DNA of 56,474 nt, filler included, from Dugesia japonica (lineage: Eukaryota): the NCBI GenBank assembly GCA_001938525.1. It is 5 parts of 5 records of this genome, joined end to end, with 100 filler letters (N's around TTAATTAATTAA, not from the genome) between each part and the next. Parts side by side here need not be neighbours in the genome. Positions count along the whole stretch, not along the records: positions 1 to 9,310 come from MQRL01551998.1; positions 9,411 to 21,741 come from MQRL01612637.1; positions 21,842 to 31,501 come from MQRL01594514.1; positions 31,602 to 47,538 come from MQRL01604241.1; positions 47,639 to 56,474 come from MQRL01647629.1. The stretch is one strand, 5' to 3'. Shown here piece after piece: positions 796 through 47,990 of the stretch (the stretch's first letter is position 1; each line of letters starts with the position of its first letter). The notes under the pieces were generated by a model. That model was not told the DNA's origin. It saw only the letters and a program-made list of their open reading frames with translations, and ran no database searches. Both the position numbers and the translations under genes were made by a program.

Positions 796-3700
796 ATAAA
801 TATGAAAATTTTCAAAAAAATATTGAGAACGCTTTTTTCAAATCGGAATTATTACTAAAATGTAAAATTGAATTTGAAAGATTAATTAAAATCGATATAC
901 CGGAACCGAAACAAGACCCAGAGATTTCTGCTGATGATATAAGTTTAAATCTTATTTTTACTGGATCTATAAAATCAGGTAGAAGTAGCGTAATAAATAT
1001 GATATTGAACGCAAAGTAAAACAGAATAAAGTGTTGTACTTTAATTTAGTTTTTTCCCCATAGAGTAATGCCAATAAATGTTCTTGGAAGTAGCTGCTGT
1101 GTGAAAATATGTCATCCAAAGAGTTCATCAAAACAAATTTCTGTTGGAACATACGATTGGGAAGGTTGGGAAATGGATAAAGTAACAGATATTGAAATTG
1201 AAGAATTACCAAAGAGAATCGAAGATATGCAAAATAAATTACTTAGAAGTTCATTTGTAAAGGGTCGTAGATTATCAAGACGTTTACATGTAAATTTAAA
1301 ATTTTTCATATTTAATTTTTTATAAAATTAAACGTTATTTATATAGAAAAAGGTTTTAGTTAAAATTTCTTTATGAAGATTATTAAAATATCCTTTGTAA
1401 ATTTAACAATGAAATTTGTAAGTTAGCAAATTATTGAAAATGATTTAAAATAATTAGTTGATGTGATATTATCAATAATGTTTTCCAATAAAATTTTATA
1501 AATTATAAACAAGATTATTTTAATGAATTCTGAAAAACTATCAATGGTTACGTTTAACAAATATTCTCGCAATAATCGTAATTGTTAAAGTTTATTTTCA
1601 AAGATAAAGATAATATCTTAAATTAATGATAAATTTTTTTTATTATTCTAACCATTGATCTGTAAATTTAAAATATCTGAATTTTTGATTACAAAATTTT
1701 TAGAAGCAAATATCAAAATCGCTGTTCTATTTTCATAGATTGTTCAATCTTTTGGCTATGCTTTCTTCGGGAACTATTGTTTAATTCATTTTGGTTATAA
1801 TCTTTTAAATAAAAACAATTTAAATTTGATCAAAATTAATTTTCATTGGTTAGTAATTATAACATTAAATTTATTGATCAATTTTTCGAATAATAAAAAA
1901 ATATTTATTTTAATGTTTGCATCAATTAACCAAGAATATATTCAATAAATTTAATTTTATAATTATTAACCAATGAAAACGGATTTTAATCAGATTAATT
2001 TAAATCGTATTTTAATTTAAAAGTTAATAACCAAAATGAATTAAACAATAATTCCTGAAGAAGGCATGGCCTAAGTATTTAACAATCTATGAAAATAGAA
2101 AAACAGCAATTTTGATCTTTGCTTTTAAAAAATCGAAAATGAAAATATTTTATCAAAACTTCAGTTTAATGAATTTAATAATTTGAGTAATTTAAACAAA
2201 TAATAATTTTTATAATTTTTGAGTTAATCAATTTAAAATTTTTTTTTAAATTTAAAATATAAATTTGAAATAAATTCAAACGGAAAACTAAATCAATAAT
2301 CAAAATTAATTAATTTAATTTTAAATAAATTCACTACAAAGCTCATTTTAATGATTTTAAAAACCAATCTTCAATAAATTTTAAATTATGTCATTATATA
2401 AACTATAAATCTAAAATGATAAATTTATTATACATTTAAAATTTTGCCTTGAAAAATTTGATTGAAAAAAATTTTAATATTTATTTATTAATACAATTTA
2501 ATAATTTATTTACAAATTAATTTTCAAAATATTTACAAGAAAACTTCAGCCAAAATTACAAAATGTTTAATTCCGTTTTTTAAAGCAATCTCACAATTTA
2601 CTTTTATTTATTTAAAGCTAAACTGAAAATTTGTAGATAAAATACCTTCTTTCAGAAATGATCAAATATCAACTCTTCATTGAATATTGTGAGGTATTAA
2701 ACTTAAAATCAATTTAATGATGCTTAAGTAAATGTCAAACGAAATATGTATGTATGAGTTATCAAATAAAATGATTCTCTTGAACCTATTACATTATATT
2801 AGTACGCAATGATGCCTAATTTTTGAAGTGGAGTAAACAAGTGAATTCTTTTTTACTAGTCACATACATAATTAAAAGACAATGATTTTAAAATCGTGTT
2901 AGATTTGAAAGTTTCAAATTTTCTAAAAAATTATTTGAAAGATTTTTTAAAATTTTGGTACGACATTCGTTGAAAATTTACATCGAAACATGAAATTGAT
3001 GTTTGGTTTAAATGTTTTACTATATTTCAATTCGATGAATTTGAACAATTCGTATTTTTTTTATTTGATATAATAAAGATTATTTTTTATTTATAATATT
3101 TTTTAAATGTTAAATAAATTTTTAAAATATTTTACCATGATTTTATATTTTCGTCAAAAATTATTAATAAAAATAATTTTTTGAATGTCAAATTAAAAAT
3201 GGGTGTTTTATCATTTTACATTTCTACAAGTCACTTCACCAAGAAATTGGCTTTACTTACTATCAGAAACGGAACAAACTCTCAACTCAAGGACTACTTG
3301 CTAATGCAATTGCCGCATCTGACTTTAGTAATAAATTTATGAAGAACCTTAATGTGATGGAGAAGGTTGTTTTTTATTGTCAGAGCAAAGAACAACCTTC
3401 TTAGAACTAATTACAACCCACATAGACTAAAAAAGAACATGTTCAATCACTACAGGCAATGTTGAACACATGCTTAGACTCAAACTCATATATTCAATCC
3501 TTTTCCAGCCATGAAAAATCAGAAATACAATAAACACAACCAAACCCTTAAAAAACAGCATCCATCTTTAGGAAATGGGATTTTGATGTTCAATATGAAT
3601 GCTCTTCCCAAGAACTTGACACCAAACTCAGACCAAATCTTGTATGGCTAGAAGTAGAAACGCTAAGATATACATCCTGGATGTAAAAGTGCCTCATGAT

Positions 3701-4660
3701 TCTCTAAAAGGATTCAAAATAGTGAGAATAAATAACAAAAATAAATATGAACAAGTCAGAAAGGACTTAGAAGCCAAGATTACGCTTGATGTAATTGTAA
3801 TCGGTACCCTTGGATCTTGGGACCCAGCCAATCAAAAAGCTCTCAAAACAATTGGTATCAATAACGAAGAAATAAAAAATTTGTCTTGGATACTTACAGA
3901 AAAGGTCGCAGAATTTTTCTCGATTATATGATCAACAAAGCCAGATTCAATACAATAGATTGTGCTTCTCATGTGTGATGTTTGAACCAAGTTTTCTACC
4001 AAATATTTGGCTGTTTGTTGTATGTAATTGTAAAAAAGAAAGTTGAGGTAATGGAATCTTCTATGCTTATTTGACCTGTTAAGGGGATTGGTTTATCACT
4101 TGAGTGTTAAATAAAGCTTTATTTATTTATATAGATAGAAGGACCTAAGCCTAAGCAATACAAGCATGCAATCAAACTACGGATTACGAGTTACCGACTC
4201 TATTCTGAAAATCTAGAACAAATTCTTTGTGGGATGTCATTATATGTATTACCTTAGACTTAAATTAAAATTGAGATGCTTAGATGAAACTTAACAAATA
4301 TATTGTTGACATAGCAAGATACATAGTCATTTCTTCTATAAAATTACAGATAATTACTTACCGTAGTAAAAATACAGTGTTCCATGAAAAGTTTAGGATT
4401 TTTAGAGTGTTCCATTGCATGAGGAGTTTGGAAAACCCTTATTTAAAGTATATGATGAAGTTTTATACTAACCATTTTATTTATTTAATTTTAAATTACA
4501 GGTTCAGTTGCCTCATTGGTTTTTGAAAAATATTAATATTTACAAATGTTCTCCAATTGATGGAATGAATTCATTTGATGAACCTTTTGACATCATAGAA
4601 AAATCCAAAAATTCCGTTCTCGTGCATGTGATTGATGCATCAAATGGTTTAATGGAATGG
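796..4660 (+). CDS. Partial multi-exon gene for a dynamin-superfamily-like (mitofusin/DSTYK N-terminal type) P-loop protein. Exons 796-1015, 1064-1289, 4502-4660; both ends not found
   Basis: GT-AG introns 1016-1063 (48 nt, phase 2) and 1290-4501 (phase 0) join in frame to give ...LNLIFTGSIKSGRSSVINMILNAKVMPINVLGSSCCVKI...RRLHVQLPHWFLKNINIYKCSPIDG...VLVHVIDASNGLMEW. This follows the family pattern GxxxxGKSsxINxlLgxxvlP ... vxxPxxlLkxxxxlvDxPG ... vvyvida. Confidence 0.75.
1510..1592 (+). repeat. 3' fragment of the dispersed hammerhead-bearing repeat family
   Basis: ttattttaatgaattctgaaaaactatcaatggttacgtttaacaaatattctcgcaataatcgtaattgt aligns by eye with the reverse complement of 13270-13345. 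Confidence 0.8.
1697..2133. repeat. Inverted repeat, arms ~1697-1831 and ~1991-2133, each carrying a degenerate hammerhead-like motif
   Basis: The reverse complement of 1991-2133 aligns along its length with 1697-1831, e.g. ttttcatagattgtt and attgtttaattcattttggttat. The right arm has aattc-CTGAAGA-a-GGC-atg-GCC. Confidence 0.85.
3230..4120 (+). mobile_element. 3' remnant of an R2/NeSL-type non-LTR retrotransposon (restriction-like endonuclease domain)
   Basis: LDTKLRPNLV / ARSRNAKIYILDVKVPHD...NKNKYEQV...VIVIGTLGSWDPANQKALKTIGI matches the RLE pattern RPDLV..iiDVtvP..KxxKY..vvGalGsW. Frameshifted and located in the 3.2-kb intron. Confidence 0.85.
4140..4310 (+). repeat. Diverged dispersed repeat, copy 1 (copy 2 at ~45740-45920)
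   Basis: caatacaagcatgcaatcaaactacggattacgagttaccgactctattctgaaaatc vs gaatataagcatgcacttaacatacgggttacaagtcactggctccattctgaaaatc. Confidence 0.7.
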
Positions 4661-4661
4661 G

Positions 4662-6400: not shown

Positions 6401-9310
6401 CAGGGCTGCGCCAAGCGGAAGGGCAAAGGGTGCACGGCACCCGGGCGGTACGTCTTGGGGTGGCAGGCAAAAAATAGTTTATTGAAGAAATACTAGTTGT
6501 CCAATCTTTATTATGTCCATGATTGTTTTAACATACTGCTTATTATTTAAATAGGTAAAATTTGTAAGTATATTATATACTTATGTATGTAAATAAATAA
6601 TGCAAAAAGGACGTCATTCGTAACATTGTTAATGTTAAGATATTGCTTCGCAAGCGTTGCTCCTAAAATATAAAATAATAAACCTATTAAAACGATCGTT
6701 AATATTATTATGCGTATTTATAGCATAATATTTAATTTTATGGTCACACATATTTATAAAATATTAAACTTTATGCGTGGTAAGTTTCATTGAAATGTTT
6801 GAGTTAAAACACTTGTAATCTGTATTAATGCCCGAGTTTCTCAGCTTCTAACATAATAACTGTGACTTTTAATATTTTTTTCGGCTAACTGCATTTTTAT
6901 ATGAAACAAAATGTTATATATAGTTTATAAACCGTATTTTAAAATTAATTTATTAAATATATTTTTGTTAATATTGTTTTCTATAAGAAAATATATAAAA
7001 TTAAAATAACATTTCTCAAACAAATCGTTTGTTTTCAATATATAAGGTCAAATTAAAATTATTTTAAAAAAATTGTTAGATCTCAGAGAAAAGAAGAAAG
7101 CTATCCAATGCAGCATATAGAAAACGAAAACTTGAAAAAGAAGAAAAAATCAAGAAAGAAACCACTTCAATAGCAAATTTTCTTTTCAATCAGTTCCTTA
7201 CTCAAGCAATTCAACACCATTTGAAACTGAAGATAAATTGCCACATTTTCCATGAAAAGAATATGAAGATAAAATCAATGCGAATGGAAGAGAGCGAAGC
7301 AGTTTATCTTCTGCGCCAGAAAAAATATCTTTACAATTGGAGGTTGAGGTGACAACACAAATTCACACAACGAAAAATGGGAACCAGAATCTACCTCTAT
7401 TCAAATGAAAGTAAAGATTTATCAAATATTACTGAATTAGATTTAAATGATCCAGGCCTATGGCCTAAAATAATTGCAGACGAAATTAGAATGTCATTAA
7501 TAGAAATAGGACCAAAACAAGTGAAAAATTTTAACTTTCTGGTAAATAATAAAAGATCTTTTGAGGAGACTTATTACATAAAAACATTAAATAATGGAGA
7601 AAAAATAAATAGAGATTGGCTAGTTTTTTTCTACATCCAAAAATTCAGTATATTATTTCTATTGTAAAATATTTGGAAACATTGATAACGCCCTTAATAA
7701 TGCAAATGGGTATTGTGATTGGAAACAAAGACATGAAAAAAGTAAAGTAAATGAACAATTTTAAATCTGTGATTGATTTAAATAAATTAATTAATAAAAA
7801 TAAAACTGTTGATACGTTGAATGAAAAATTAATTACATTAGAAAAAAAGAGATTGNNNNNNNNNNNNNNNNNNNNNNNNNNNNNNNNNNNNNNNNNNGAC
7901 AAAATTTAGCATTTAGAGGAACAAATAACAAATCTTTTGACGCACAAAACGGAAATACTTTAAAATTAATGGAAACGTTTGCTCAATTTGATGGTTTCAT
8001 GGTTGAACATTTAAACTGTGTTCAAAGTAATGAGAATAAAATTCCACATTATTTAGGTGAAAAAATTCAAAATGAGTTAATATTTTCAATAGGAGGAAAA
8101 ATTAAAACAGAAATAATTACTTCACTAAAATTTTGCAAATATTATGCAATAATATTAGACTGTACTCGCGATATTAGCCACCGGGAACAAATAACTATTA
8201 TTGTGCGATTTGTGCATTTAAATAATACTAATAAAAAATTGAAATTAGAGAACATTATTTATGCTTTTGTTCTATATTAGATTTTACTGGAAAGGGAATA
8301 ACCAGATTTATAATAGACCTTTGAAATCAAGAAAATATATGCATGTACGATATGCAGGGACAAGGCTATGCTAATGGTGCTAATATGAAAGGAAAACATA
8401 ATGGTCTCCAAAGAAAATTTTAGATGTAAATCCTAGAGCTTTTTATGTGCCATGTTCTTCATAGTTTAAATTTATTAATTAATGATGCGGCAAAGGCATC
8501 TCTTGAAATTACTAACTTTTTTACTTTGATTCAAGAAATTTATGTTTTCTTTTCATCATCAACTCGTCGCTGGAAAATTTTAATGAAAGAGTATCCTTCA
8601 TTGACCTTTAACCCAGTGTCTGACACAAGATGGGAAAATAAAATCAACGCTGTAAACGTTTTAAGATATAATTTGGAATAAATTTATGATGCATTATACG
8701 CTTTATTTAATGATTTATCTTGGGATGCTAATACAAGAAATATGGCTAAATCTCTTATAAAAAAATCAAATCATACAAATTTATATGTTCCATAGTTATT
8801 TGGTATAACATATTATCCAATGTAAATATTGCAAGTAAATTTTTGCAAAAATTTGATTTAGTTATACCAACTGCAATTGAAATGCTAAAAGACCTCAAAG
8901 ATTCGTTACAAGAATATAGATAGGATGATAATTTTAAAAATATGATGAATGAAGCACAAAAGATTGCACAGGAGATTGATTGTGGAACTGAGTTCCCAGC
9001 AGTTGATATAATAAGACCTCGTAAAAAAAAGAAAATGTTTATGTATGAAAATATGGATGAAAGTTCTCAATTGCCATTAGAAAATTATAAAGTTTATTTT
9101 TTTCTCACTATTTTAGATACAGCAATATCAAAAATAGAGGAAAGATTTGAACAAATGACTGTTCATAACTAAACTTTTCATTTTCTAAATTACATTTATA
9201 CGTTGCTAGAATTGAATAGGGATACTACATTTAAATATTGTATGGATTTGCAACTTAAATTGTCCGATAATGAGCGAAATAAATCTGATATAAATGCATT
9301 AGATTTATGT
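6401..9310 (+). mobile_element. hAT DNA transposon (ZMYM1-like/DUF4371 transposase pseudogene), truncated by the scaffold gap
   Basis: GC-rich left end CAGGGCTGCGCC at 6401. Transposase fragments: NDPGLWP, NGEKINRDWL, QNLAFRG, IQNELI...YYAIILDCTRDISHREQ, GQGYANGANMKGKH, HSLNLLIND, FFSSSTRRW, SDTRWE. Many frameshifts and stops. Confidence 0.92.
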
Positions 9311-9354
9311 NNNNNNNNNNNNNNNNNNNNNNNNNNNNNNNNNNNNNNNNNNNN

Positions 9355-9366: not shown

Positions 9367-9559
9367 NNNNNNNNNNNNNNNNNNNNNNNNNNNNNNNNNN
9401 NNNNNNNNNNTAAGTAAATTTATTGTAGTTTGGAGAAAAATTTTATGAATTTAAGTAAATTTCATAAGAAAAATATAAACAAAATGATCATGTTAAATAA
9501 ATATTTTATTTAAAACAATAGTAATTGTCAGAATATTATATATATACAAATAAATCTAT

Positions 9560-12670: not shown

Positions 12671-12856
12671 AATAATATTTGCGAAAATACTTTAAATTTA
12701 TTTATTCCTTGAAATTCATTATTTTTGTTGTTTTAAATTGGTTTACAATTGACCTTCAAGTTTCAAGTTTGAGAAAGTGGATCATGAAAAATTTTTTTAA
12801 ACTAATTATTAATTGTTTGATATTTTAAAATTAGGGATCTTTACAAAAATGACCCA
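12671..12856 (+). repeat. Direct repeat, 'empty' copy of the segment repeated at 13663-13983
   Basis: 12681-12742 matches 13673-13734 and 12760-12856 matches 13885-13983. The second copy carries a ~150-nt insert. Confidence 0.85.
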
Positions 12857-13233
12857 ATCAATCTGGTAGAATAACCAATCAATATGGTAGAGTTATCATA
12901 ATAAGTTGCCAAAAATACAAAGTTGGAATATTCTTTGGTTTTCCCAATATTTATAAAAAAAAGCCAACTGCAACTATAAATTTGAATTTTCTTTAAAAAA
13001 AGTTTGAATTTGAATTTCCATCATTAGGCAGCCACTAAATCTTTCCAATTTAAATTAACAAAAATAATAATGTATAGATTTTTTAGGTTTCAAAAAACAT
13101 TTAAAAACTCAAAGAAATTGTTTGAATTAAAGGAAATTTTAATATATTGTGTAAATTCTTTTCTTGTATTTAATTATAATATATAAACTTTCCAAAGTCG
13201 GAGCCAGGTGCGGTCGCACCTTCTATGTTTTCT

Positions 13234-13421
13234 AATAGTAGTAGTAATAATAATAATATCAATAATTTTACAATTACAATTATTGTGAGAATGATTGTTG
13301 GACGTAACCATTGATCGTTTTTCAGAATTCATTTAAAATAAAAGCATCGATCAAAATTTGTTTTTCTTTTGGATTTTGAAAATAGTTCTATATTTAGACT
13401 TAGTCTTCTCCAGGAATTGAC
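13234..13421 (-). repeat. Near full-length copy of the hammerhead-bearing repeat with an (ATT/ACT)n tail
   Basis: Minus strand: gtcaattc-CTGgAGA-a-GAC-taa-GTC-tAA-ATAT-A-gaact ... ttgatcgatgcttttattttaaatgaattctgaaaaacgatcaatggttacgtccaacaatcattctcacaataattgtaattgtaaaattattg, then a simple-repeat tail. Confidence 0.85.
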
Positions 13422-13734
13422 TTTTTAAAATAATTAACTTATTATAATAATCATAATAATTATTATAATAATAGTAGTAGTAATAACAATCATAAAAGTG
13501 ATAATGATTATTTAATTACTACTTGAAGTAAACAATAAACGAAATAAACTGAAAATATAATCAAAACAGATAGTATCTATGGTTAGATTTAAGGATTACA
13601 TAATAATTTTAATTACCAATTTTATGATATATTTTATTTTGTATTTGAATTCAAATTTCTTAAATAATATATGTGAAAATACTTTAAATTTATTTATTCC
13701 TTGAAATTCATTATTTTTATTGTTTTAAATTGGT

Positions 13735-13745
13735 AGTAGTAATAG

Positions 13746-13776
<31 letters not shown>

Positions 13777-13884
13777 CATAATATCAATAATTTTACAATT
13801 ACAATTATTGCGAGAATAATTGTTGGACATAACCATTGATAGTTTTTCAGAATTCATTTAAAATAAAAGCTTCGATCAAAATTT
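13735..13884 (-). repeat. 5'-truncated copy of the hammerhead-bearing repeat with a simple-repeat tail
   Basis: Near-identical to 13235-13365 but lacks the hammerhead end. Confidence 0.85.
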
Positions 13885-17277: not shown

Positions 17278-19236
17278 AAAAGACAGTTAAAAATGAATAT
17301 TTAAAGAAAAAAATGGAGAAATTATTAATTTATTTTACACTAATTATTGTTCATTGTTCAAAATAAACAGTTTTTATATTTCAAACATATAAAAAATAAA
17401 GAAAAAAGTCTTCGAACAAAATTTCACCAGAAAAACATTATATAACATAAAAAAGATTAGGAGCAGACTATATTTCTACAATTCACAGAAAGAAACATTA
17501 AGAAATACTGATTAAAGAAGATAAACCTAAAATCAATGTAGTATATAATAATTAAAATAAAGTTAAATTAATTTAATTTAAATTAAATTAAAATTATCTC
17601 ATAAAATTTCAATAAAATGCAAACAATTTTGTAAAATATTCTAATCTTTGTTAAATCAATCGAAGAAGACAATAATCGAAAATTCTAATAACTACCGAAA
17701 AAGAAATAAAACAACATTTTNNNNNNNNNNNNNNNNNNNNNNNNNNNNNNNNNNNNNNNNNNNNNNNNNNNNNNNNNNNNNNNNNNNNNNNNNNNNNNNN
17801 NNNNNNNNNNNNNNNNNNNNNAAAAATAAAATTTACTTAATACTTGAAATTGACAAATTTGAATTTTTGTGAAATTTTCATTAAGTGACATAATTCTAAT
17901 ACTTTTAAATTTACTAATACATTTAAATAATTCACTGGCAGATAGAACCTCGTGAGATTTGTAGAATGCTGCACATGTTGTCCAATGAATATTGTTTATG
18001 GAAGTTTCTATTTTAAAATACTGAGCATTTTTTGAATATAAAACAACAGCAATTGAATCTATTTCATATGGGAAAAATAATGTAAACCATGGATTTGTTG
18101 TAACACTTAGCACAGATTTACAATTCATATTGCCGTTGTTTACTAATATATTACAATTAATTTTCGGTATACAATCGGCAAACGATGATACTAAAACTAA
18201 NNNNNNNNNNNNNNNNNNNNNNNNNNNNNNNNNNNNNNNNNNNNNNNNNNTTAAATCCTTTCTCTTTCGTTTAGGATTTGTATTTTTCATGTTCATAAAA
18301 GACAGTTAAAAATGAATATTTAAAGAAAAAAATGGAGAAATTATTAATTTATTTTACACTAATTATTGTTCATTGTTCAAAATAAACAGTTTTTATATTT
18401 CAAACATTTCAAACGTATANAAAATAAAGAAAAAAAGTCTNCNAACAAAATTTCACCAGAAAAACATTATATAACATAAAAAAGATNAGGANNAGACTAT
18501 ATTTCTACAATTCACAGAAAGAAACATNAAGAAATACTGATTAAAGAAGATAAACCTAAAATCAATGTAGTNTATAATAATTACAATAATTAAAATAAAG
18601 TTAAATTAATTTAATTTAAATTAAATTAAAATTATCNCATAAAATTTCAATAAAATGCNAACAATTTTGTAAAATNTTCTAATNTTTGTTAAATCAATCG
18701 AAGAAGACAATAATCGAAAATTCTAATAACTACCGAAAAAGAAATAAAACAACATTTTAATAGAAACTATTAATTTAATGAAATCACTTATATATTATTA
18801 AATGATTTTGTTATTTTGCAGCCTTCATAATATAAATGTTTTTAATAAAAATAAACCAAAAATAAAATTTACTTAATACTTGAAATTGACAAATTTGAAT
18901 TTTTGTGAAATTTTCATTAAGTGACATAATTCTAATACTTTTAAATTTACTAATACATTTAAATAATTCACTGGCAGATAGAACCTCGTGAGATTTGTAG
19001 AATGCTGCACATGTTGTCCAATGAATATTGTTTATGGAAGTTTCTATTTTAAAATACTGAGCATTTTTTGAATATAAAACAACAGCAATTGAATCTATTT
19101 CATATGGGAAAAATAATGTAAACCATGGATTTGTTGTAACACTTAGCACAGATTTACAATTCATATTGCCGTTGTTTACTAATATATTACAATTAATTTT
19201 CGGTATACAATCGGCAAACGATGATACTAAAACTAA
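17231..19236. repeat. Near-identical ~1-kb tandem duplication (17231-18200 vs 18251-19236), probably an assembly artefact
   Basis: The copies are almost base-identical, are joined by an N run, and the second has scattered single Ns. Confidence 0.85.
18873..19232 (-). CDS. Exon encoding an F5/8 type C / galactose-binding-like extracellular domain (duplicate at ~17836-18195)
   Basis: tttag acceptor and gtaaat donor enclose a 360-nt phase-1/1 open exon: ...SVTTNPWFTLFFPYEIDSIAVVLYSKNAQYFKIETSINNIHWTTC...FKCISKFKSIRIM...KIQICQFQVL. This fits the nPW..., f.ie.S.d...W..C, .irI...l.lCE..V pattern. Confidence 0.55.
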
Positions 19237-21741: not shown

Positions 21742-21841
21742 NNNNNNNNNNNNNNNNNNNNNNNNNNNNNNNNNNNNNNNNNNNNTTAATTAATTAANNN
21801 NNNNNNNNNNNNNNNNNNNNNNNNNNNNNNNNNNNNNNNNN

Positions 21842-30910: not shown

Positions 30911-31874
30911 CTTAAAATGATGCTTGTTCCAACGTGCAACGGTTCCGATGAAATCCGTGATCATCTCACCGGCACGAATGAATTTGAAAATTAACAATAT
31001 TTATAGATAGNAAATAATTTTTATTTTCTTGTTTTTAATATATAAATCTAAATTTTAACATGAACAAATAAAAATAATTTAATATCATTTTCATTTTTAA
31101 TTTAACTTTTTATTCTCTTTTATAATATTTGACTCTTATTTGAAAATTCCAATCCTTTCGTTATAAATAATAATATTTATGTAATAATAATAATTTTAAT
31201 AATATTTATGATACAATAATAATAATTTCAGATAGTTTCTTTCTATCTTGTGCATATGGATTTATACGGGAATAAATATAAATATTTTAATATTCTTACA
31301 CAATCTTACATTAACTTTTTATAATCTTTCATTACATATAATTCTATTTTCTTAATTCTAATTTCTTCTTCGTAATTAATAATATTTAGCTAAAATAATA
31401 ATAATACTATATTCTAATTATTCAAACACTTTTATTAAAATAATAGGCTTTTCTTTTTTACATTATAATAATGTTTATACATATTTTTAACTACAAATAT
31501 ANNNNNNNNNNNNNNNNNNNNNNNNNNNNNNNNNNNNNNNNNNNNTTAATTAATTAANNNNNNNNNNNNNNNNNNNNNNNNNNNNNNNNNNNNNNNNNNN
31601 NAATTTTTTTTATCTAAACTGTAATTGAAAATTGATATTATTAAAATCTAAAGATGTTATACAGGTTCTACAGTAAGGTTCTATATTCTTTTCAAAGGTA
31701 TATTTGTATGTATTATCTGTTTCTTGTCATTATTAATGCGTTTCATTCGCATTATTTCTTCGTAGTTTAGCACATTTTGTAAACTTATTACTTGTTTAAC
31801 AATTTTATTTTAAAATTTTCTTCAAATCTGAAGAGTAAGAAAAGTGTATATTAAAACNTTTTGAATTCTACCTT

Positions 31875-32100
31875 TCATTAAAAATAAAATAATAGTTTTG
31901 ATCAAATTAAATTGTTGTTTTCTATTCAAATTTTCAACTATTTCCTGGGATATTCCTGAAGAAGACAAATAGTCGAAAATTTGAATATCTATAAAACAAA
32001 AATTTAATTTGATCGAAGCTTTTACTTTATTTTAATAAAATCTCAAATGCAATCAATAGTTAAGTCCAACAATTGTACTCAAAATAATTAAAATTATAGA
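31875..32100. repeat. Hammerhead-bearing repeat (31949-32100, +) with an abutting inverted partial copy (31875-31948)
   Basis: The reverse complement of 31875-31945 (aaatagttgaaaatttgaatagaaaacaacaatttaatttgatcaaaact) aligns with 31967-32020. Confidence 0.8.
31949..31989 (+). ncRNA. Minimal type I hammerhead ribozyme motif (Penelope-type)
   Basis: GATATTC (stem I) - CTGAAGA - A - GAC AAATA GTC (stem II) - GAA - AATT (palindrome in place of stem III) - T (cleavage site) - GAATATC (perfect 7-bp complement of stem I). Confidence 0.75.
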
Positions 32101-33479
32101 ATTTGAATTGTTTACTTTTTATTTTATTTCCTACTGCGTATTGTTATGACAAAAACAGATCAGTTTATGGTTGGATATGAAGTAAACAAAAAATATTTAG
32201 TGCAAACAAATACTCCTTTAGAATAATTAGAGAAAAAATTGATAAAAGGTTTTCTAATAGTAAAAACTAATTAATAAATAATAAAACAACAATTCATTAA
32301 AACAAATTTTTATTTTGAAAATAATATTTAAACATTGCATTTTTTTACAATGCTAAAAGTACTAAACATGAATCAATTTGATACATAAAATTTCAGATAA
32401 TTTATAAAAATTGTCGAAGATAAAATTTATTAACTTACAGGAGTTATAATTATTTGATAGCAAATTGATAACAAACATAATCACAAGTAGAAAATTTACG
32501 TTATTCAAACAAAATAATAAATTAACATTGATTGAGCTATTCTCAATGAGCACAAGCAGCAGCATCTGTACAATAGCGCATTATCGACAAAGAAATATTT
32601 TCAAATAATCATTTAATAAATTAATTTACTTATTTGCTACAAACAGTTAGACGATTATTCCAGAGAGTAATTAATTACACACTCTCTAATGATTAATTAA
32701 ATAGANGTTTGCGACTGCTTAGATACTACTTTTTGTGTTTNGTTTGAATAATCNCAAATTGTAACATAATTATTTCGAAATGTTTATGATGTTCCAACCA
32801 ATTTAATTCTCATAAGTTTGTTAATAAATTATAAAATTTGTCCATTTAAACTATTTATTTTCAGATTAAGTATGTTTTTAATTTCTTTTCTTTCTCTTAT
32901 CTTTGTTGATTCACAAATAATGAATTCCTCCGAATCCAAGAAAAAATACTTCATTTATTTCTTAAAAATAAATTTTTCATATTTATTTTTATTTCTGGAT
33001 TGTAACTTATTTTCCGTTTCCTTAGAGATTTAATTTTACTTGATTTCTGTTTACTAAATTGAACAAATATTGTTTACCGTTCATTAAGTTGCTTTCCTAT
33101 CTTTTTTATTTGCATTCTGATTTGTTATTCTTCTCAAATTAATTTACTTGCTTTAATTATTAACAATAATTAACTTAATCATTTTTTATTCTTCCTCTCA
33201 GTCTTATAGTTCTGTTTAAATTTATTTGTTAACATTTGTTTGCTTTTTTTCATTAGAATAGTCAGTTTTATCTCAGATTGCTGAATTATTTATTCCCGAT
33301 TTAGCGAATCAGTCTTATTGATGTAATATAATATTTGGCTTGTTATTAATTTCAAGGAATTTTCTTTATTTACTTTCAGGTGATATAACTTCATTTTTAT
33401 GTTAAATACTACATAAACCTAGTAGACCAGATCGCTTAAAATCCCAAGATTATACGATACTATAATTATTAGTTCTAAA

Positions 33480-34580
33480 AATGAATAATACAAAGTTTTC
33501 AGTAAACTTCAATATTTATTAAAAATGTGACACAAAATTTTAATCAAAAGTGATCGCCATTGTTTTGGATAACATTAAACAATAAAATTCCATTTCTAAA
33601 AACGTTTGGCTGTTTGGAGGAGATAAAGTCGTCCAACTCTTTTCATATGACATCCATTAATTGAAAGTGTGTATGTCACAAGGAGACCTGTATTGATTAG
33701 AAAAAATGATAATCAGTTTGACTATGTCAGGTGAATACGCTAGGTGCACCAAGATTTCCCAGTCAAGTTTCGTTATGGTGTCCTTTGTCTTTAAAGCAAT
33801 ATATAACTTAGAGTTTTCATGCAACAATTTTACAAGACGCCTTTCATATTATCACAAATGTACAGCATTAAGGTTTTTCTAAAACGATAGTGCTTTGCGA
33901 TCGATGTTAAAGGTTTGTCGGTATTTATCCATGACATTTTACGTTTAAAAATATNATATTGTATTTATTTCTCATCTACTGTCACAATTGTATGCAATAA
34001 TGACTTTCAACGCTGTCTATTGAGAAGAGAAATAAAAGTTCCAATTTGTTTATCTTTGCTGGATTGACGGAGTTCACGATGGACATTTTTTCTTTTATTT
34101 TGGATGATACCCATCTTATGTAAATGGTTAGAAACAGTTTGTTAAGTTACTCTCAATTGTTTGTAAGCTTTGTTTGTGTCAAATTATGAGAAATTAGTAG
34201 TTCCAGATATCCATTGCTGCATGTTCTACTAGTTACAGTACGTTGTATGTCTGTGACACTGAAATCATCTCTTTTAAATAGCCTGAACCAAAATGCTCAC
34301 CCATCATACGACACTTCATATTTGCCGGTAACGGAACAAAATGATTCACATGTTCTTTCTGTATTTTCCTGCTGAAATTCATACATGATACAGTGTTGAA
34401 TACGCGCCTTATCTGTCGCAACGTAGAACTGAAATATTTTGATGTTTTTGTTTGATTCATTTGCCAATTAAATTTCATTTTAATATTTTATTTAAAAGTT
34501 GGTTGTAAATTGGAATATTAAAAAGATTGCATTATGTATATAACATAGAGAAAACATTTAGATTATTTATGGACCTACTA
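33480..34580 (-). mobile_element. Decayed mariner (DD34D) transposon
   Basis: Minus strand: HTIVTVDEK (~33970-33995) and LDWEILVHLAYSPDIV..DYHFF (~33700-33768), matching IVTGDEKW and HPPYSPDLAPSDYHLF. Confidence 0.85.
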
Positions 34581-39052: not shown

Positions 39053-40810
39053 CAATTAAAATATGTATTTTATGTAAAATGTACTATAACTTGCGACATG
39101 TGACCCGTGGGTCGTCAGTTGATTATCACTGGTTTTAAATTAATGAATATTTTATTACTTTTATGATTTGTAAAATTAGCATAATTATTGTGATTACTAC
39201 CCATCCACAAAATTTAGAAGTAATAATTTCAAAATATTCTAGAATAGATGATAAAATATTATATTTAATGATGAACGTATGAGACTGGTTAATCTTTTGA
39301 GAATAAATAAACTGAATTCGAATTTTCTAAAATTAAAATATTAAACCGAAATAATTAATAGTTTAATTCATAGTATTTATGTTGTTTCTATGAATTCAGA
39401 CTTAGTATGACGTCAGTAAAAGAAAATTGATTAGATTTACTAAAAGAAACTTGTACAAAACAAAATGTACATACTTTCAGTTTTAAGTGACAAATAATAA
39501 TTCACTTAACAATATCAAATTTTTGCTATGTAAAAAATTGGAAAAACACAAGAATGTTTTCGACTAAACCTGCTTGAGGCTTTTTACTAAATTTGATACT
39601 GAAATTTTTTTTTTATTAATACAATTTCTGTTTTAATTTTCTTAAATGTTGTAATAAAATAATGTTAATACATTAAATATCGATTAATTTAATGTAACGA
39701 TTGGCTATAAATTAGAATTAAGTTTTAATGATATCGACTACATATCATCGATTTCATTATTGATCGATAAATGCTAGTCTATATTATTAATATTTGTTGA
39801 TTGTATAATTCATAATTAAATTCGAAAATCAATAAATAATTATAAGTAAATTAAATATAACAGATTGATCTTAGGCTATTTTTATTTTTACGAGAGAAAT
39901 TGCTGGTGTTCACCGATGGACATTATATGGTTTTCACAAAATATTCGTTGAAGGTAAAATTTTGATAATAATTGATTGCTTTCCAGTACTCCTGATATTA
40001 CTGTGTATTAAGTTCCCATAATACTAAATAATTATTAGAAGAAAATTATATATTTCACATTGATCTTAGGATGTTAATTCTTTTACAATAGCACCAATGA
40101 TCACCGATAGACACACAGTATATTTCATTTCGAGACTGTTTCAGTTATGGGTTGAAAGTGTAAAGAGCAATGAGTCAAATATATTTATTTTATTATTTTC
40201 CATTAATCTTAGAAATCATTTAATTAAATATCTAAATTGAGTCTTAATTTTGCAATTTCGATGAAGAATATTAATTATTGTGTTTGACCAAAAATGCAAA
40301 TTAAATCATTGATTTTAATAATGAAAATCAATAATAGTATTTGTAAGAACTAGTTCTTGCCTTAGAAAAGTTTTTAATTAATTAAAGAAAAAATTTTTTT
40401 AAAGCTTTTATTATTTTATAAAATATTTAAATTTATAAATTGTTGTAATTTATTTTAGTTTGTAGAATTTTTTCATTTAAAATTTCTAGAAAATCATAAT
40501 ACAGTTGTTAGATGTGTCTAAGACATTCATAGTTGAATTCAAAAAGAGAATTTGATTGCATTTATTTAAAAAATTTATTAAACAATAAATAAAACTTTAT
40601 TTCCAAATATAAAATATTGCAAAAAAAATTAATTGTATTAATTTATTTAAATATTTAAAAACATTCTTATAAATAAACTTTAAATTATTTTTAATAAAAT
40701 AAACAAAATGCATTTCCATAAAAATTTCATATTTTTTACATTAAATTAAAAAACACTTTTATAATTTTTTTAATAATTTAATTCAAATTGCTTTTAAATT
40801 AATTTAAAAT

Positions 40811-40985
40811 TCAATTTCTGATGAAGACAAAGTCATAAGTTTGAAATACTATCAAAAACTAAAACCAAAAAAATACAAAAAAAATAAATATTTCGATGGA
40901 AACTTTTAATTTAATGAAATCTCAAATACGATCAATGATTAAGTCCAACAATTATTCTCGTAATAATTCTTATAATTGTAAAATT
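40811..40985 (+). repeat. Hammerhead-bearing repeat copy (CTGATGA variant)
   Basis: caattt-CTGATGA-a-GAC-aaa-GTC-ataa-gttt-gaaat ... atctcaaatacgatcaatgattaagtccaacaattattctcgtaataatt. Confidence 0.8.
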
Positions 40986-41257
40986 TACATTAGAATAATA
41001 TTTTGTAAAATATTTCAATAGAAATACCATAAATATTTATAAATATTTAAAAATATATTTAATTATTTATTTTAAATAATTTTAATATATTTGCAGCTAA
41101 AATCATTGTTCGTTAAAAATAAATAAGGAACAAATTAAATAATAAACATTTAGAATAATTAATAATTTTATTTTTTATTATTTAGATAGTCCTTAATACT
41201 TATTTCATTTTTTTTCTTAAATTACTTTTCTTTCAAATTAATTAAGTGTCCATAAAC

Positions 41258-41300
41258 GTCAATTCCTGACGAAGACAAAATCAAACATTTGAAATACTTA
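41258..41300 (+). repeat. 5' fragment of the hammerhead-bearing repeat (CTGACGA variant)
   Basis: gtcaattc-CTGACGA-a-GAC-aaa-aTC-aaac-attt-gaaatac. Confidence 0.7.
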
Positions 41301-41329
41301 TATTATTCATTTTTCGGATTATAAATTTT

Positions 41330-41610: not shown

Positions 41611-41799
41611 TTCATTATTAAAGGTGTAGAAAATATTAAAATTTAAACAAAAACAATATTTTACGGCGTAAAATATTTGTTGAAAATATTACAAATAAAT
41701 ATTTTTTAAAATTTGAGTGAATTTAAAACCAAAATTAATAGAATTTTTATTGATTATTTTGAAAAATTCAATTTAACTTAAAATTCTTATTTAGGTAAG

Positions 41800-42185
41800 T
41801 TTTTACAATTAAAATCATTGCAAAAATAATTGTTGGACTTAACCATTGAAATTTTAATTAAAATAAAAGCTTCGATGAAAATTTCTTTTTTATATTTCTA
41901 GTATTTTGACTTTTTGATTTATTCAATATTTAATATCACAATAGAAAATTTTTTTTTTGAATTAATTAATTTTATTGAATTTTAATTAGTTAATTTTAGT
42001 TTTTTAATTATTATAAATTACATTGATTTAAGATTTATCTTCTTTAATTGGTAATTATTCCCATGAAAAATATAATAATTAAATATTATAATCTATTGTA
42101 AAAATAAATATTGAATAAATCAAAATATTTTAAATAAATAAAAAAATAAATTTTGATCGTAGTTTTTATTTTAATAAAATTTCGG
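41800..42185. repeat. Inverted pair of degenerate copies of the hammerhead-bearing repeat (41800-41930 -, 42105-42185 +)
   Basis: aataattgttggacttaaccattga...aaataaaagcttcgatgaaaattt...gatttattcaatattt vs aaatattgaataaatc...aaattttgatcgtagtttttatttt. Confidence 0.65.
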
Positions 42186-43269
42186 TAAGTTTTATTTGAA
42201 ATTTATAAGATAATTTTTTTATAATTTAAACTTGATTTTAATATTATCTTCAAAATAAGATTCGTTTCAAAGCTACTTATTAATAAATTATTAATTAAAT
42301 ATTTTTATATAAAAGTAATTTAGTCTAAATGGTTTTAGAATTTCTACTACCGTTTATAACGTGAATGATTTACAGGGTAGACAATATGTTTTCTAAAAAT
42401 TACCGAAATACAAAAGAAAAAGGATTTGGGATAATTATTAATTGATCAATTAGTATAAGTGATTTCTAACCTGATGAAAATTAAAAGAAAAATATGATAA
42501 TTTCTAATTAAGACAAGTCATGAGTGTTATCGTATTATTTATTATTATTATTATTGCAATAATTTATTAAGAAATGTCTACTTGATAAATCTAAAAATAG
42601 AAGAAATATCTGTAATTTCTGCAAATAAAAAATAATTTTACGTTTGTTTCAAAGTACATTCTAAAAATTTAAAATACCCTTCTAAAGTTCTAATAAGATA
42701 TTGGGTTAAAACAAATAAGAAATGTTTTTTAATAAAAATATTATTTAAACAAAAATTAGTTTTCTTTGTAAAGTTAATAAATTTTCAGTATGATTTTTTA
42801 TTAAACTTAATTCTTAAATTATAAGAAAGCATTTGAAATTTGAAATTATTATGCTATATTGTAATGTATTTTAAATCTATATTTTTTATATAAAATTAAA
42901 AATGTTTTTAATTAAATAAAATTAAATTAACAAAATAATAATTTAATAAGTGGGAAAACAATAAACAAATCAATCAATGAACAGTAAACAGTTTGATACA
43001 ACAAAATTTATATTTCATCTACGTGTGTCATTTGGTTGAATTTTAATCTTGAATTTAGTTTTAAAAATAAATAAAATTCAACTACACTCTTTCAACACGA
43101 TGATTTTATTCATATTTTTGTATTTACTTACATTTTGTATTATTTATTGTGTGAATCTTTAGTTATTTTCAATCTTTATCATCATAATTTACAACTAGGT
43201 AATTATTTTTCAAAATTATTACTCTGATTCTCTCCATTTTACTTTCACAACACAAACAAAAAAAATACC

Positions 43270-44650: not shown

Positions 44651-45084
44651 TTTGTTATTGATTAATTTATTTTCAATTAAAAACGTTTGCTGAAATTCGA
44701 TAAATTTTAGTAAGACTTAATAAAAAAAATTTTAATACATAATTCTTCTTTAGTAATGATATTTTTAATAATATAATTTTCTTTGTAAAAGTTGCAGATA
44801 ATGTTAATTATTGTTAAATAGTTGATAAAATTAAATAATGGTTAAAATGATTGATTAATAATTATTTTTCTTAGTATCGATAATGATTAATAATTGTAGT
44901 AATGTTTAATGATGATATTAATTATTATTAATGATGATTATAAATCAATAACTAGAGGGAATATTTATAGTGGAATAATAAAAGTAAAGTCATTTTGAAA
45001 GTAATTAGTAATGANTAATCATCTGTAATAACTATTGATGTTGTTAGAGGCAACTTTAATAATATTAATAATAATATTAGTAAT

Positions 45085-45245
45085 CATTTAAAATAAAAGT
45101 TTCGATTAAAGTTTTGTTTTTCTTTTGGTATTTGATAACAAAATATACATCGAAGCTTTTATTTTAAACAAATTTTGAAAAACGATCAATGATTATGTCT
45201 AACAATTATTCTAGCAATAAATGCAATTGTAAAACAATAATAATA
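45085..45245. repeat. Head-to-head truncated copies of the hammerhead-bearing repeat
   Basis: tttaaaataaaagtttcgat (45087-45106) is inverted against atcgaagcttttattttaaa (45149-45168), followed by the family 3' body and an AAT-rich tail. Confidence 0.7.
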
Positions 45246-46384: not shown

Positions 46385-47538
46385 TTAAAATATCCTATTT
46401 CCCACTCGTCTAATTCGTAAATGATTAAGTAGTGAAAATAAAATCCTTTTCACAGTTTCACGAAACGTTCCCAGAAAACAACAATAGAGCATGAAATTAA
46501 TCGAGAAATTGATAACTTGCATAATATTCGTAATAATTTCCGCATCACGATATATTTCATCATTTGTTGAAGTTGAATAATTATTTATTTTGTTTTTATT
46601 AATCGGAATCGAATAAATAATATGTTTGATGATTTCTGATGGTGCTACTAAAATCAGAAATGTCACAATGATTGATATTAATGTTATGGTTACTCTCATG
46701 TTATTTGAGGAAAAATGCTGAGGAGTTCTTGATACAGACAAAATCTGAGAATCTCCTCTTTGACTTCGAGTTAAAATTCTGTACAAAGCTGAATTTGTTG
46801 AATTGCTATATGAAGATGAATTCTGAGCTAGTTTTACACGATGCGCTTTGGAAACTGTAATCGTTAAACGAATATTGAAAATAAATAGTAAAACCAAAGG
46901 TATAATATTGCCCAATAATGTCCATGTAATACGAAAGAAATGCTCCATTTCAAATGAAAACGATTTGAATTCGAATTTATAATAATAAAAAAACGAATCG
47001 TAGAATTTGTTTGAACAATTCTTTACGTGTAACTGCATGTTGATTCGGAACACATAAGGAATATTGAATAGAATAGAAATTAGAAATGTAAGAAAAATAC
47101 ATATTCTCGTTTTGGTCAATGTAATAAAATGACAAGCTTTTAGTGGATAACAAACCGCAACAAATCTCTCAGTTGCCAACAATACTGTTAACCAAGTACT
47201 TGAAAAAATAAATATATTGATAAATACATAGGAATATTTCGCGTAATAATAATAAAAATCCACTTGAATAAAAATCTCATGATGTGGCGATAAACCAGTT
47301 GGGAAAACAAAACAACACACCATTAAATCACTTATTGCCAGGGCTTTTAAGCATTGATTTGCACTCTGGACTCGTCTACCGAGAGTGTTTCGTAATCGTT
47401 TCTCTGATAATACAGCAAGATTTAAAATATTTCCAATTATTCCACATAAAGTGATAATCGGAATGAGAATATGATAGCAAATAAATGATAGAGTTGTTGT
47501 TTCAAGAAATATTGTGCACTTTTGACTGTGATTTAATG
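46385..47538 (-). CDS. Class A (rhodopsin-like) neuropeptide GPCR, FMRFamide/myosuppressin/sex-peptide-receptor-like clade. Intronless in view; the N-terminus is lost in the gap
   Basis: The frame stays open upstream of 47323: LNHSQKC...IPIITLCGIIGNILNLAVL (TM1 GN)...LKALAISDL (TM2)...STWLTVLLATERFVAVCYPLKA (TM3)...LFNIPY...IIPLVLLFIFN...FLILVAPS...NFSINFMLYC (TM7), then stop. Confidence 0.95.
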
Positions 47539-47638
47539 NNNNNNNNNNNNNNNNNNNNNNNNNNNNNNNNNNNNNNNNNNNNTTAATTAATTAANNNNNN
47601 NNNNNNNNNNNNNNNNNNNNNNNNNNNNNNNNNNNNNN

Positions 47639-47990
47639 GAAATCTCAAATCCGATCAATGGTTAAGTCCAACAATTATTCTCACAATAATTGTAATTATA
47701 AAATTATTATAGTTTATGATTATTATAATTAAAATAAAATTTTAAATATTGAAAAAGATTTTAAAATTTTAAAAAAATACAATTTAATAACATTTTAAAA
47801 TTTCAATTTAATTTAAATTTGATTAAAATCATCGAAAAAAATTTTAATAAAATACAAACCATTGTGTAAAAATTTTCTAATATCTTTCAGATTTGTCAAA
47901 AAGTTATTCCTAAAGACAATAGTTGCAAATTCAAAAATCTATAAAACAACAATGGAATTTGACCAAAGCTCTTATTTCAATAAAATTTTA
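47639..47990 (+). repeat. Two fragments of the hammerhead-bearing repeat (3' part 47639-47710; degenerate 5' part ~47903-47990)
   Basis: gaaatctcaaatccgatcaatggttaagtccaacaattattctcacaataattgtaatt; gttattcctaaagacaatagttgcaaattcaaaaatctataaaacaacaatggaatttgaccaaagctc. Confidence 0.75.

Follow-up and report, generated by a model that had tools for sequence, protein, structure and literature searches.

Dispersed repeats with a minimal hammerhead motif in Dugesia japonica: probable debris of a Penelope-like retrotransposon

Penelope-like elements (PLEs) are retrotransposons whose reverse transcriptase is, in phylogenies, sister to telomerase. Their insertions are described as 5'-truncated copies with a head-to-head inverted partner, with TSDs of 8-10 bp, a 'tail' that may be present or absent, and a pseudo-LTR (pLTR) that includes the first 12-22 codons of the ORF (PMC3846280; PMC8557442). 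Thousands of single minimal hammerheads left by PLEs are found in animal genomes, and these follow a descriptor with an extra nucleotide after A9, a G10.1-C11.1 pair, a palindromic 15.2-16.2 pair and a stem II of 3-7 bp (PMC4209133). In vitro, the PLE Poseidon cuts 5'-ATT-3', its reverse transcriptase (RT) starts inside the ORF start, and hammerhead mutants still inserted (PMC11167929), so that the role of the ribozyme is uncertain. Non-LTR retrozymes are recognized by tandem repeats of 150-450 bp, in which two or more successive units have a complete hammerhead, and by abundant small circular RNA.

We analysed a stretch of 56,474 nt from Dugesia japonica (the window), in which an initial annotation had described about a dozen copies of a ~190-nt SINE/retrozyme-like family carrying a hammerhead.

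Coding ends on both sides of the repeat

A profile built from three copies gave 17 nhmmer matches in the window at E ≤ 1, of which 15 (the three seeds included) reached E ≤ 0.003, the weakest of them with 12.5 bits; the reversed window gave no match and five local shuffles did not exceed 9.9 bits. Related sequence was present wherever a copy had been annotated, the piece at 17655 lying outside the nhmmer matches and being tied to the family by 3' UTR and other pairwise comparisons and by its twin at 18699. The estimate of a dozen copies, one per 4-5 kb, was revised to 16 pieces at nine loci, or about one locus per 6 kb, several annotated copies being two arms of one insertion. Every piece is 5'-truncated. 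A unit of ~190 nt was not recovered: hammerhead to 3' end measures ~145-165 nt, and homology extends ~250 nt further upstream of the hammerhead, into coding sequence.

The order within the repeat is ORF end, stop, ~105-nt 3' UTR, minimal type I hammerhead, 5' UTR, ATG and ~17 codons. At locus C, 17409..17555 (+) holds the decayed C-terminal 48 codons of a GIY-YIG endonuclease, with two in-frame stops. The peptide of 17400-17549 retrieved a protein, P0021 (E 3.5e-12 among 1.84e9 proteins), in which W and E stand where the window peptide has its two stops, and a search with P0021 led to P0023, an 843-aa protein from a contig of 2,764 nt with an RVT_1 domain (E 7e-7 at 476-573) and a GIY-YIG domain (E 2.8e-4 at 753-794; score 21.6, slightly below the 22.6 cut-off). 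The final 48 residues of a P0023-type protein are encoded 5' of the hammerhead, at 17409-17552 (29/45 identical to P0023 799-843; pairwise E 3e-17; phmmer iE 2e-13 among six-frame chunks), and the terminal TAA at 17553-17555 aligns with the end of P0023. The ~105-nt 3' UTR and a degenerate hammerhead at ~17660 follow (17556..17720, +) and enter an N gap; this 3' UTR matches 47805-47888 and 42059-41950 (-), with 0/300 in two nulls for each. A second assembled copy, with a short-class 3' end, lies at 18426..18790 (+). The pieces at 17655 and 18695 belong to a single locus that is represented twice across N gaps (an assembly or haplotype duplicate), with flanking blocks matching at 94% and 100%.

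The other side of the hammerhead provided an independent test, since the N-terminal end of P0023 had played no part in finding it. In eight copies the final ~55 nt code for the N-terminal ~18 residues of a P0023-type protein: when 112,848 six-frame positions were scored with P0023 residues 2-18, the eight best scores (38-74; next 29) were those of the eight long copies, and the ORF start of locus B1 was identical to P0023 2-20 at 12/19 positions (pairwise E 7e-7). Sorted by codon position, the ORF start gave 6/8/6 and hence no third-position excess, as expected of decayed copies. At locus F both ORF ends lie on the same strand, C-terminus first: the long arm (41801..42059, -) holds a C-terminal relic with stop at 42054-42007 and the ORF start at 41852-41802, the UTR/hammerhead region between them being shortened. 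The order ORF end, UTR, hammerhead, ATG, that is, the partial-tandem junction of a pLTR, was thus found at locus C with its duplicate and at locus F, the only two of the nine loci that reach back into C-terminal coding sequence. ORF length together with the stop-to-ATG distance in the window predicts a monomer of ~2.75 kb, to be compared with the 2,764 nt of the P0023 contig.

These findings indicated that the dispersed repeats are very probably 5'-truncated insertions of an endonuclease-containing PLE with a single RT plus C-terminal GIY-YIG ORF. The initial annotation had proposed asking whether the unit is the pLTR of an autonomous Penelope, and both ORF ends of a P0023-type protein do flank the hammerhead. 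Neither Pfam nor phmmer of P0023 against the six frames found an RT core or full-length element in the window, so that the link to an autonomous element is made through one protein, P0023; it is through this homolog that the single RT plus GIY-YIG ORF is known, and the window itself holds the ORF ends, where the only convincing phmmer matches lie.

Pfam searches of 19 long ORFs and of 146 of the 167 composition-filtered stop-free frames of at least 45 aa gave no RT and no GIY-YIG (16 of the remaining frames were covered among the long ORFs and 5, which overlap other genes, were omitted; 124 of 291 frames had failed the composition filter). Pfam searches of the ORF-start peptide and of 17289-17551 translated in three frames gave only chance matches, and a word-indexed protein search with the C-terminal peptide gave no match. 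PDB searches gave nothing at E ≤ 0.01 with P0023 and chance matches or nothing otherwise, and prokaryotic genome scans by DNA pattern and by protein yielded no relative. An Atlas search with P0021 retrieved eukaryotic clusters, one with GIY-YIG on 15% of its members, which serves as a lead only. The single-sequence AlphaFold model of P0023 was uninformative (pLDDT 33) and was not used. Two candidates were set aside: P0022 (5096 aa), the second match of the peptide search, whose window match had E 0.86, and a reading of the sequence 3' of the hammerhead as the endonuclease C-terminus in another frame, P0023 placing the C-terminus upstream and the ORF start downstream.

We considered the possibility that the family is a non-autonomous, PLE-derived hammerhead unit of 350-450 nt (a non-LTR retrozyme or SINE-like) that would amplify itself via circular RNA with a borrowed PLE RT, loci E and H being dimers. 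The copies are indeed short and dense, and pLTRs have been reported as a source of retrozymes (bioRxiv 10.64898/2026.07.22.740005). At locus E, two same-strand mutated hammerheads (40818 and 41266) stand 448 nt apart, the first in a copy that continues through the ORF start (40797..40986, +), the second alone (41254..41299, +). At locus H the spacing is ~350 nt and the spacer holds 3' UTR: copy 1 (47639..47705, +) has an ORF start and its 5' part in an N gap, and copy 2 (47805..48001, +) has 3' UTR, a degenerate hammerhead (~47907) and a short-class end. Yet the spacer at E showed no detectable repetition; it repeats neither the DNA upstream of E (scores as high arose in 20/300 and 51/300 nulls) nor the 3' UTR of C and H, and extended homology to H, F or C was rejected. 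The tandem copies that the initial annotation had suggested looking for did not appear, TRF with periods up to 500 finding no array of the unit, and no locus holds two intact hammerheads. Every 5' end is different, one copy extends 48 codons into the endonuclease, and the retrozymes of PMC7229834 have canonical, not minimal, type I motifs. With coding ends of one RT plus GIY-YIG ORF on both flanks, no tandem intact hammerheads and no tandem array, the SINE/retrozyme label is unsupported, and self-amplification of such a unit is very unlikely. An Rfam scan of the whole window (4227 families, E ≤ 1) placed nothing on the repeat, neither a SINE head nor the hammerhead, and gave one chance-level SNORD69 match at 36997; the 5' ends vary, which argues against a fixed SINE head (tRNA-, 7SL- or 5S-derived, with Pol III boxes). 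Judged from its sequence, the repeat is very probably the pLTR (3' end) of an autonomous PLE, not a stand-alone SINE or retrozyme.

The hammerhead motif and its decay

The proposed minimal type I hammerhead held up at 31948..31990 (+), the sole intact motif and the sole match of the published descriptor in the window; 2/1000 shuffles gave any match, and none gave one with a stem I of at least 7 bp. It consists of an 8-bp stem I (31948-31955/31983-31990), the core CUGAAGA (31956-31962), an extra A (31963), a stem II that begins with G10.1-C11.1 (31964-31966/31972-31974), GAAA (31975-31978), the palindrome AAUU (31978-31981) and H17=U (31982), after which the cut is predicted. Three features of the PLE descriptor are present: the additional nucleotide that follows A9, G10.1-C11.1, and a palindromic pair at 15.2-16.2. 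Folding by minimum free energy (MFE) returns the hammerhead structure (-10.3 kcal/mol, z -2.25). Having no monomeric stem III, this hammerhead would need to dimerize via the 4-nt palindrome, to be assisted by the PLE protein, or both, in order to cut.

Most copies have a mutated core and are probably dead, as had been supposed: among the six with a readable 5' box one is intact and five carry two core mismatches each, and stem I has only 3 bp in most copies. The core variants CTGAAGA (2055 and 31956), CTGATGA (40818) and CTGACGA (41266) are all present, but variation is not confined to the free core position. Two of the four first-box changes fall at N7 (P ~0.10 for at least 2 of 4) and two at conserved positions (U4 in the 1770 copy, A6 in the 13413 copy), and the GAAA box is changed in 5/6 copies. 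The palindrome (15.1-16.1) is AATT or ATAT, as described, in four of eight registered copies. The GGC/GCC variant at 2063-2071, proposed as a compensatory pair, is a double-sided change of stem II, but it stands in both arms of one insertion (locus A, 1642-2182) and therefore represents a single event; the left arm (1642..1912, -), of a divergent subfamily, has a mutated hammerhead with C3 at 1770, and the right arm (1912..2182, +) one with C3 at 2055 and the G-C pair in stem II.

Another reading accepts the PLE end but takes the hammerhead match as incidental, or as a motif on which selection in this family has ceased. The covariation score was 0.244, against 0.165 ± 0.030 in shuffles, and was reached by 7/500 of them, a level that according to the tool is attainable by chance among related sequences; the score is affected by poor alignment of two degenerate rows over their 5' halves in the underlying alignment (A1). 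A crude neutral simulation gave P 0.006-0.06 for the four double-changed pairs, and most stems I have only 3 bp. RNAalifold on six copies recovered stem II but not stem I. Against this, the 31956 copy combines a complete core with an 8-bp stem I, the motif lies in the pLTR, the usual place of PLE hammerheads, and the true register pairs 71% of cells versus 19-43% in slid registers. Furthermore, the hammerhead can still be aligned between subfamilies without alignable upstream DNA, that of locus A having no significant alignment to C, H or E. An incidental or no longer selected motif is a highly improbable explanation. The suggestion that ancestral subfamilies were under selection for ribozyme structure is plausible and expected for PLEs, though the covariation is weak.

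Ends, inverted arms and integration

Head-to-head inverted pairs, in which a 5' truncation adjoins an inverted truncated copy, occur at four of the nine loci and form long imperfect palindromes (1642-2182, 31861-32052, 41837-42190 and 45087-45168). At locus D the long arm (31948..32103, +) runs from the hammerhead through the 5' UTR to ORF codon ~K18, and the inverted arm (31861..31943, -) begins in loop II and stops before the ATG. The inverted arm of locus F (42092..42183, +) has a short-class 3' end, as does that of locus G (45083..45138, -), which lies within (TAA)n-like DNA next to a long arm reaching ORF codon ~18 (45141..45234, +). One arm is long and one short at these three (D, F, G) of the four inverted loci. 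The two 3' end classes, which recall the optional PLE 'tail', are ~60 nt apart, an approximate distance; among the 16 aligned pieces there are 8 long ends (~+46 to +57), 5 short ends (~-21 to +1) and 3 unclassified, the end positions being fuzzy in DNA of 75-90% AT.

Other pieces stand singly. A short 3' fragment (1515..1592, +) covers ~-29 to +50 around the ATG. Locus B1 (13233..13423, -) has a mutated hammerhead (C3 at 13413), 5' UTR, ATG at 13311, ORF start and (ATT/ACT)n, with microsatellite on both sides; locus B2 (13735..13884, -) is 5'-truncated, has no hammerhead and carries an (ATT)n run. The (ATT/ACT)n run described at the 3' end of the family is clear only in these two of eight full ends, in copies 93% identical to each other, a third lying at the 95th percentile of the null. 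One of ten units tested has a TSD-like repeat, the 10-bp direct repeat of locus F (41794..41803, +, and 42184..42193, +; null 95th percentile 8 nt), a probable TSD in which the last four T of the left copy could be element sequence; a second 10-mer, at G, is microsatellite. In the single empty-site comparison (B2 with the paralogous site 12671-12856) ~17 bp are replaced and there is no TSD. Relics of hAT and pogo/mariner elements were seen near the repeats.

The reading as a DNA transposon (a MITE or foldback element), in which the four palindromes would be long terminal inverted repeats and for which the neighbouring hAT and pogo/mariner relics might speak, can practically be dismissed, since the arms are unequal head-to-head truncated retro-copies that encode the ends of an RT ORF, meet at a different point in each locus and have no inverted partner at five loci, and since neither the symmetric TIRs nor the constant, fixed-length TSDs that the initial annotation had named as evidence against its own reading were found.

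For the PLE insertions, published work suggests how the pLTR junction, the end classes and the head-to-head loci of this window might have arisen. A full-length element in partial tandem would be transcribed, and predicted hammerhead cleavage in the parent element would process multimeric transcripts. The GIY-YIG domain would nick AT-rich DNA, (ATT)n included, and the RT would start at one of two internal RNA sites, the first ~50 nt into the ORF and the second ~60 nt further upstream, the distance between the two sites being the optional 'tail'. Synthesis would mostly abort within 50-400 nt, often folding back or switching strand to give inverted pairs, and insertion would leave a variable-length TSD or a microhomology junction. 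The fragments would then decay neutrally, one of six readable cores being still intact.

Relation to known elements

The annotation is thus corrected: what looked like a dense 'ribozyme SINE' consists of the remains of a Penelope-like retrotransposon, and the window offers a tidy natural case of PLE insertion anatomy, with inverted arms, long and short 3' ends and the ORF start within the pLTR. An intact relative (P0023) and an intact motif (31948-31990) provide one more system for asking what PLE hammerheads do, a question that this window alone does not change.

The parent element probably belongs to the Nematis-like group of PLEs. The linker of P0023, C-x3-C-x-C-x5-C, is one residue shorter than the Nematis CX2-5CxxC, CCHH is present, and by eye P0023 is closest to PNL2_SM, an element presumably of Schmidtea mediterranea, going by the suffix in Repbase naming. 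The two share a Cys-rich linker, CCHH and, by eye and hand count, 30/75 residues without a gap across the GIY-YIG core; C-terminal residues and linker spacing, also compared by eye, differ and indicate a different family. In Fig. S2 of PMC8557442 the PNL2_SM row comes immediately below those of Nematis, and RT motif 4 of P0023 is of the canonical type of the nematode rows in Fig. S1 of the same paper. The S. mediterranea minimal hammerhead (PMC4209133 Fig. S3) differs in its stems from the one described here.

With Hydra-clade PLEs (PMC8557442) the family shares DKT in place of DKG (P0023 301-303), a short element (<3 kb) and AT-rich targets. Unlike these, which have no CCHH and a divergent RT4, P0023 keeps CCHH and canonical RT4, with CxxC between GIY and YIG, both His and a canonical QxxGxxMG; moreover, Hydra hammerheads have a real stem III, which is absent here. 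CxCX5C in the P0023 linker was rejected as a Hydra motif, its cysteines differing from those of Hydra. A combined reading, in which the parent would be an undescribed lineage bridging Nematis and Hydra (DKT plus CCHH finger, minimal hammerhead, about twice the usual tail) and the short same-strand pairs at E and H would be pLTR-pLTR units with internal deletions from which a retrozyme family is just emerging, is unlikely.

Non-LTR retrozymes (PMC7229834; bioRxiv 10.64898/2026.07.22.740005) resemble the family in being PLE-related and as short dispersed repeats, rich in AT, that carry a type I hammerhead; here, in contrast, there is no tandem array and no fixed monomer, the hammerhead is minimal rather than canonical, and remnants of a PLE ORF lie on both sides.

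The closest agreement is with endonuclease-containing PLEs (Penelope/Poseidon, Neptune, Nematis; PMC4209133, PMC3846280, PMC8557442). It comprises the RT plus C-terminal GIY-YIG ORF (here P0023), a pLTR that runs from the ORF end across the hammerhead to the ORF start, minimal hammerheads with the extra nucleotide, G10.1-C11.1 and palindromic 15.2-16.2, mostly as single truncated motifs, as well as inverted 5' copies, an optional tail and possibly variable TSDs or microhomology. The differences are an apparent tail of ~55-65 nt (from approximate ends) versus the published 30-40 bp, and a stem II with only 3 bp, the minimum in the descriptor's range of 3-7. The family is an ordinary representative of an already known class of retrotransposon.

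The dispersed repeat and its surroundings

The repeat family is genuine. A profile built from three copies gave 17 matches in the window at E ≤ 1, 15 of them at E ≤ 0.003 (the three seeds counted), compared with none in the reversed window and a best score of 9.9 bits among five local shuffles. The initial annotation had described a SINE/retrozyme-like hammerhead family of about 190 nt in about a dozen copies. The family and its motif positions hold (the 14-nt core pattern matched five times, against 0.74 expected), but the claims about the free core position, the microsatellite tail, unit length and number of copies all need correction, the last becoming 16 pieces at nine loci once a duplicate at 17.2/18.3 kb is merged. 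This duplicate consists of near-identical blocks, 17232-17720/18251-18758 (94%) and 17822-18200/18858-19236 (100%), with N gaps between them, and is probably an assembly or haplotype duplication. Within the blocks lies part of an ORF that weakly matches F5/F8 type C (galactose-binding).

Overall, the window is AT-rich DNA of an animal (GC about 26%, CpG observed/expected 0.97) with many N gaps, and also contains hAT, pogo/mariner and LTR-retrotransposon relics as well as a one-exon GPCR gene. The latter, intact and rhodopsin-family (46385-47590(-); 7tm_1, Srw; FMRFamide-receptor-like), has animal relatives that are 24-40% identical, the best 36-40%. Two broken hAT-type transposases (DUF4371, Dimer_Tnp_hAT) face each other at 7353-9310(+) and 9559-11561(-), and a mariner-type transposase relic lies at 34300-34467(-). 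Gag zinc knuckles and an aspartyl protease of an LTR retrotransposon occupy 20285-21797(+), with a diverged second copy at about 52427-53119(-); reverse transcriptase (RT) was not detected for this element. A 103-aa frame at 3620-3931(+), without a Pfam match, resembles the terminal restriction-like endonuclease of non-LTR elements of the R2/NeSL type. Inverted arms of 56 nt (56008-56144; 79% complementary, 25 nt between) are possibly a small MITE with no relation to the repeat family. Further dispersed pairs were 32554-32671/38603-38487 (93%) and 4157-4213/45755-45811 (81%). The 12-mer TTAATTAATTAA, flanked by N runs at several gaps (about 9350, 21790, 31545, 47585 and 49020), resembles an artefact of scaffolding or masking.

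Coding ends of the repeat unit

DNA 5' of the hammerhead is common to loci C (about 17409-17720), F (41801-42183) and H (47639-48001); two comparisons with C were equalled in 0 of 300 replicates of both nulls, and nine other spacer comparisons, upstream of or between copies, reached no clear significance. The peptide translated 5' of locus C resembles the endonuclease end of Penelope-like elements (PLEs), and was first spotted through the C-terminal motif of that endonuclease. Among 1.84 billion proteins it had two matches, the better of which (P0021, E 3.5e-12) has W and E facing the two stops of the window peptide. A search with P0021 led to one longer protein, P0023 (843 aa; contig of 2,764 nt), which carries both an RT and a GIY-YIG domain. 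Segment 17418-17552 is identical to the last 45 residues of P0023 at 29 positions and ends at the same codon.

The N-terminus of P0023 provided an independent test, since it had not been used in the search that found this protein. When residues 2-18 were scored over 112,848 six-frame positions, the eight long copies came top (38-74), the next score being 29. At locus F, a C-terminal relic and an ORF start lie on the same strand, 155 nt apart, C-terminus first. The unit thus reads ORF end, stop, 3' UTR of about 105 nt, hammerhead, about 100-117 nt, ATG and about 17 codons. With C-terminal coding sequence 5' of the hammerhead and an ORF start 3' of it, the unit is, on this sequence organization, the pseudo-LTR of a PLE. 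The ORF plus the stop-to-ATG spacer gives a predicted monomer of about 2.75 kb, near the length of the P0023 contig. Nothing further of P0023 was convincing in the six frames of the window.

Two related pieces about 195 nt apart, 40094-40044(-) and 39896-39849(-), show similarity to that endonuclease C-terminus too (39 and 27 in ungapped scoring, background ≤27; phmmer iE 4.7) and align with each other as DNA. No hammerhead was recognised there, and they possibly derive from the ends of a related but older family of PLEs.

The hammerhead and the mode of insertion

An Rfam scan of the window detected no hammerhead. The published minimal-hammerhead descriptor (PMC4209133, Fig. S7) gave a single match, at 31956; any match occurred in 2 of 1000 dinucleotide-preserving shuffles, and a stem I of at least 7 bp in none. 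A looser descriptor matched once more, within the protease frame of the LTR element (21237), a site that the published one rejects. On its own, the 31956 copy (31948-31990) adopts the hammerhead fold at -10.3 kcal/mol, a stability equalled in 6 of 200 shuffles. It shows an extra base after A9, G10.1-C11.1 and a palindromic 15.2-16.2 pair, and lacks stem III, all of which are reported PLE-motif traits (PMC4209133); U at position 17 is found in the published alignment too. In five further copies the 5' box is readable, and each of them has two core mismatches. Among six copies, four pairs have two Watson-Crick types, and the covariation pair counter gave 0.244 versus 0.165 ± 0.030 (7/500), slid registers being far lower. 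A crude neutral simulation of double-changed pairs yielded P 0.006-0.06, and unguided RNAalifold recovered stem II alone. Selection on the hammerhead structure in this family appears likely.

Head-to-head inverted pairs occur at four loci, and at D (31861-32103), F and G (45083-45234) a long arm is paired with a short one. Relative to the ATG, the 3' end lies at about +46 to +57 in eight pieces and between about -21 and +1 in five; both arms of locus A (1642-2182) and the second copy of locus E (40797-41299) belong to neither class. Direct repeats were sought at the borders of 10 units; one of these, locus F, has a repeat of 10 bp, against 8 nt at the 95th percentile of the null. Compared with an empty paralogous site, the copy at 13735 replaced about 17 bp, TSD being absent; the site comes from the dispersed pair 12671-12856/13663-13983 (92-96% identical). 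A Pogo/Tc5-type transposase relic (16576-17286(-)) directly adjoins the 5'-truncated copy at locus C.

By analogy with other PLEs, the element's own protein would drive target-primed reverse transcription, with nicking at ATT-type sites; RT would begin within the RNA at two alternative points, thereby defining the tail (both as in PMC11167929), and would abort early and fold back. Cleavage by the hammerhead would require a dimer or the assistance of a protein. The PLE hammerhead is described as weakly active in vitro (PMC4209133) and as dispensable for insertion in vitro (PMC11167929). The fragments in the window are most likely inert.

Comparison with known elements

The family does not qualify as a retrozyme: retrozymes consist of tandem units with complete hammerheads (bioRxiv 10.64898/2026.07.22.740005), an arrangement not found here. 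The MITE reading was rejected on insertion borders and arm ends. On every feature testable here, the repeat is the end of an endonuclease-containing PLE, and it works like one.

That PLE pseudo-LTRs leave single minimal hammerheads en masse is already established. This family was not found described in the literature on planarians; five terms, three of them peptide words, are absent from the PMC8557442 supplement, where long sequences are incomplete, and it may already be catalogued in Repbase or Dfam. Adineta PLEs have an inverted pseudo-LTR containing the first 12-22 codons, an 8-10-bp TSD or microhomology and an optional 31-bp tail (PMC3846280). Their insertion features resemble those seen in the window family, and are described for PLEs in general in PMC8557442.

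Like Hydra-clade PLEs, P0023 has DKT, but it differs from them in retaining CCHH and canonical RT4, and the Hydra hammerheads have a stem III, in contrast to that of the window family. For these reasons the family was not filed under Hydra. By eye, P0023 is closest to PNL2_SM, listed beside the Nematis rows; a hand count gave 30 of 75 residues without gaps. This closeness, taken together with the base composition, hints at a host resembling planarian flatworms. The suffix of PNL2_SM is read as denoting Schmidtea mediterranea.
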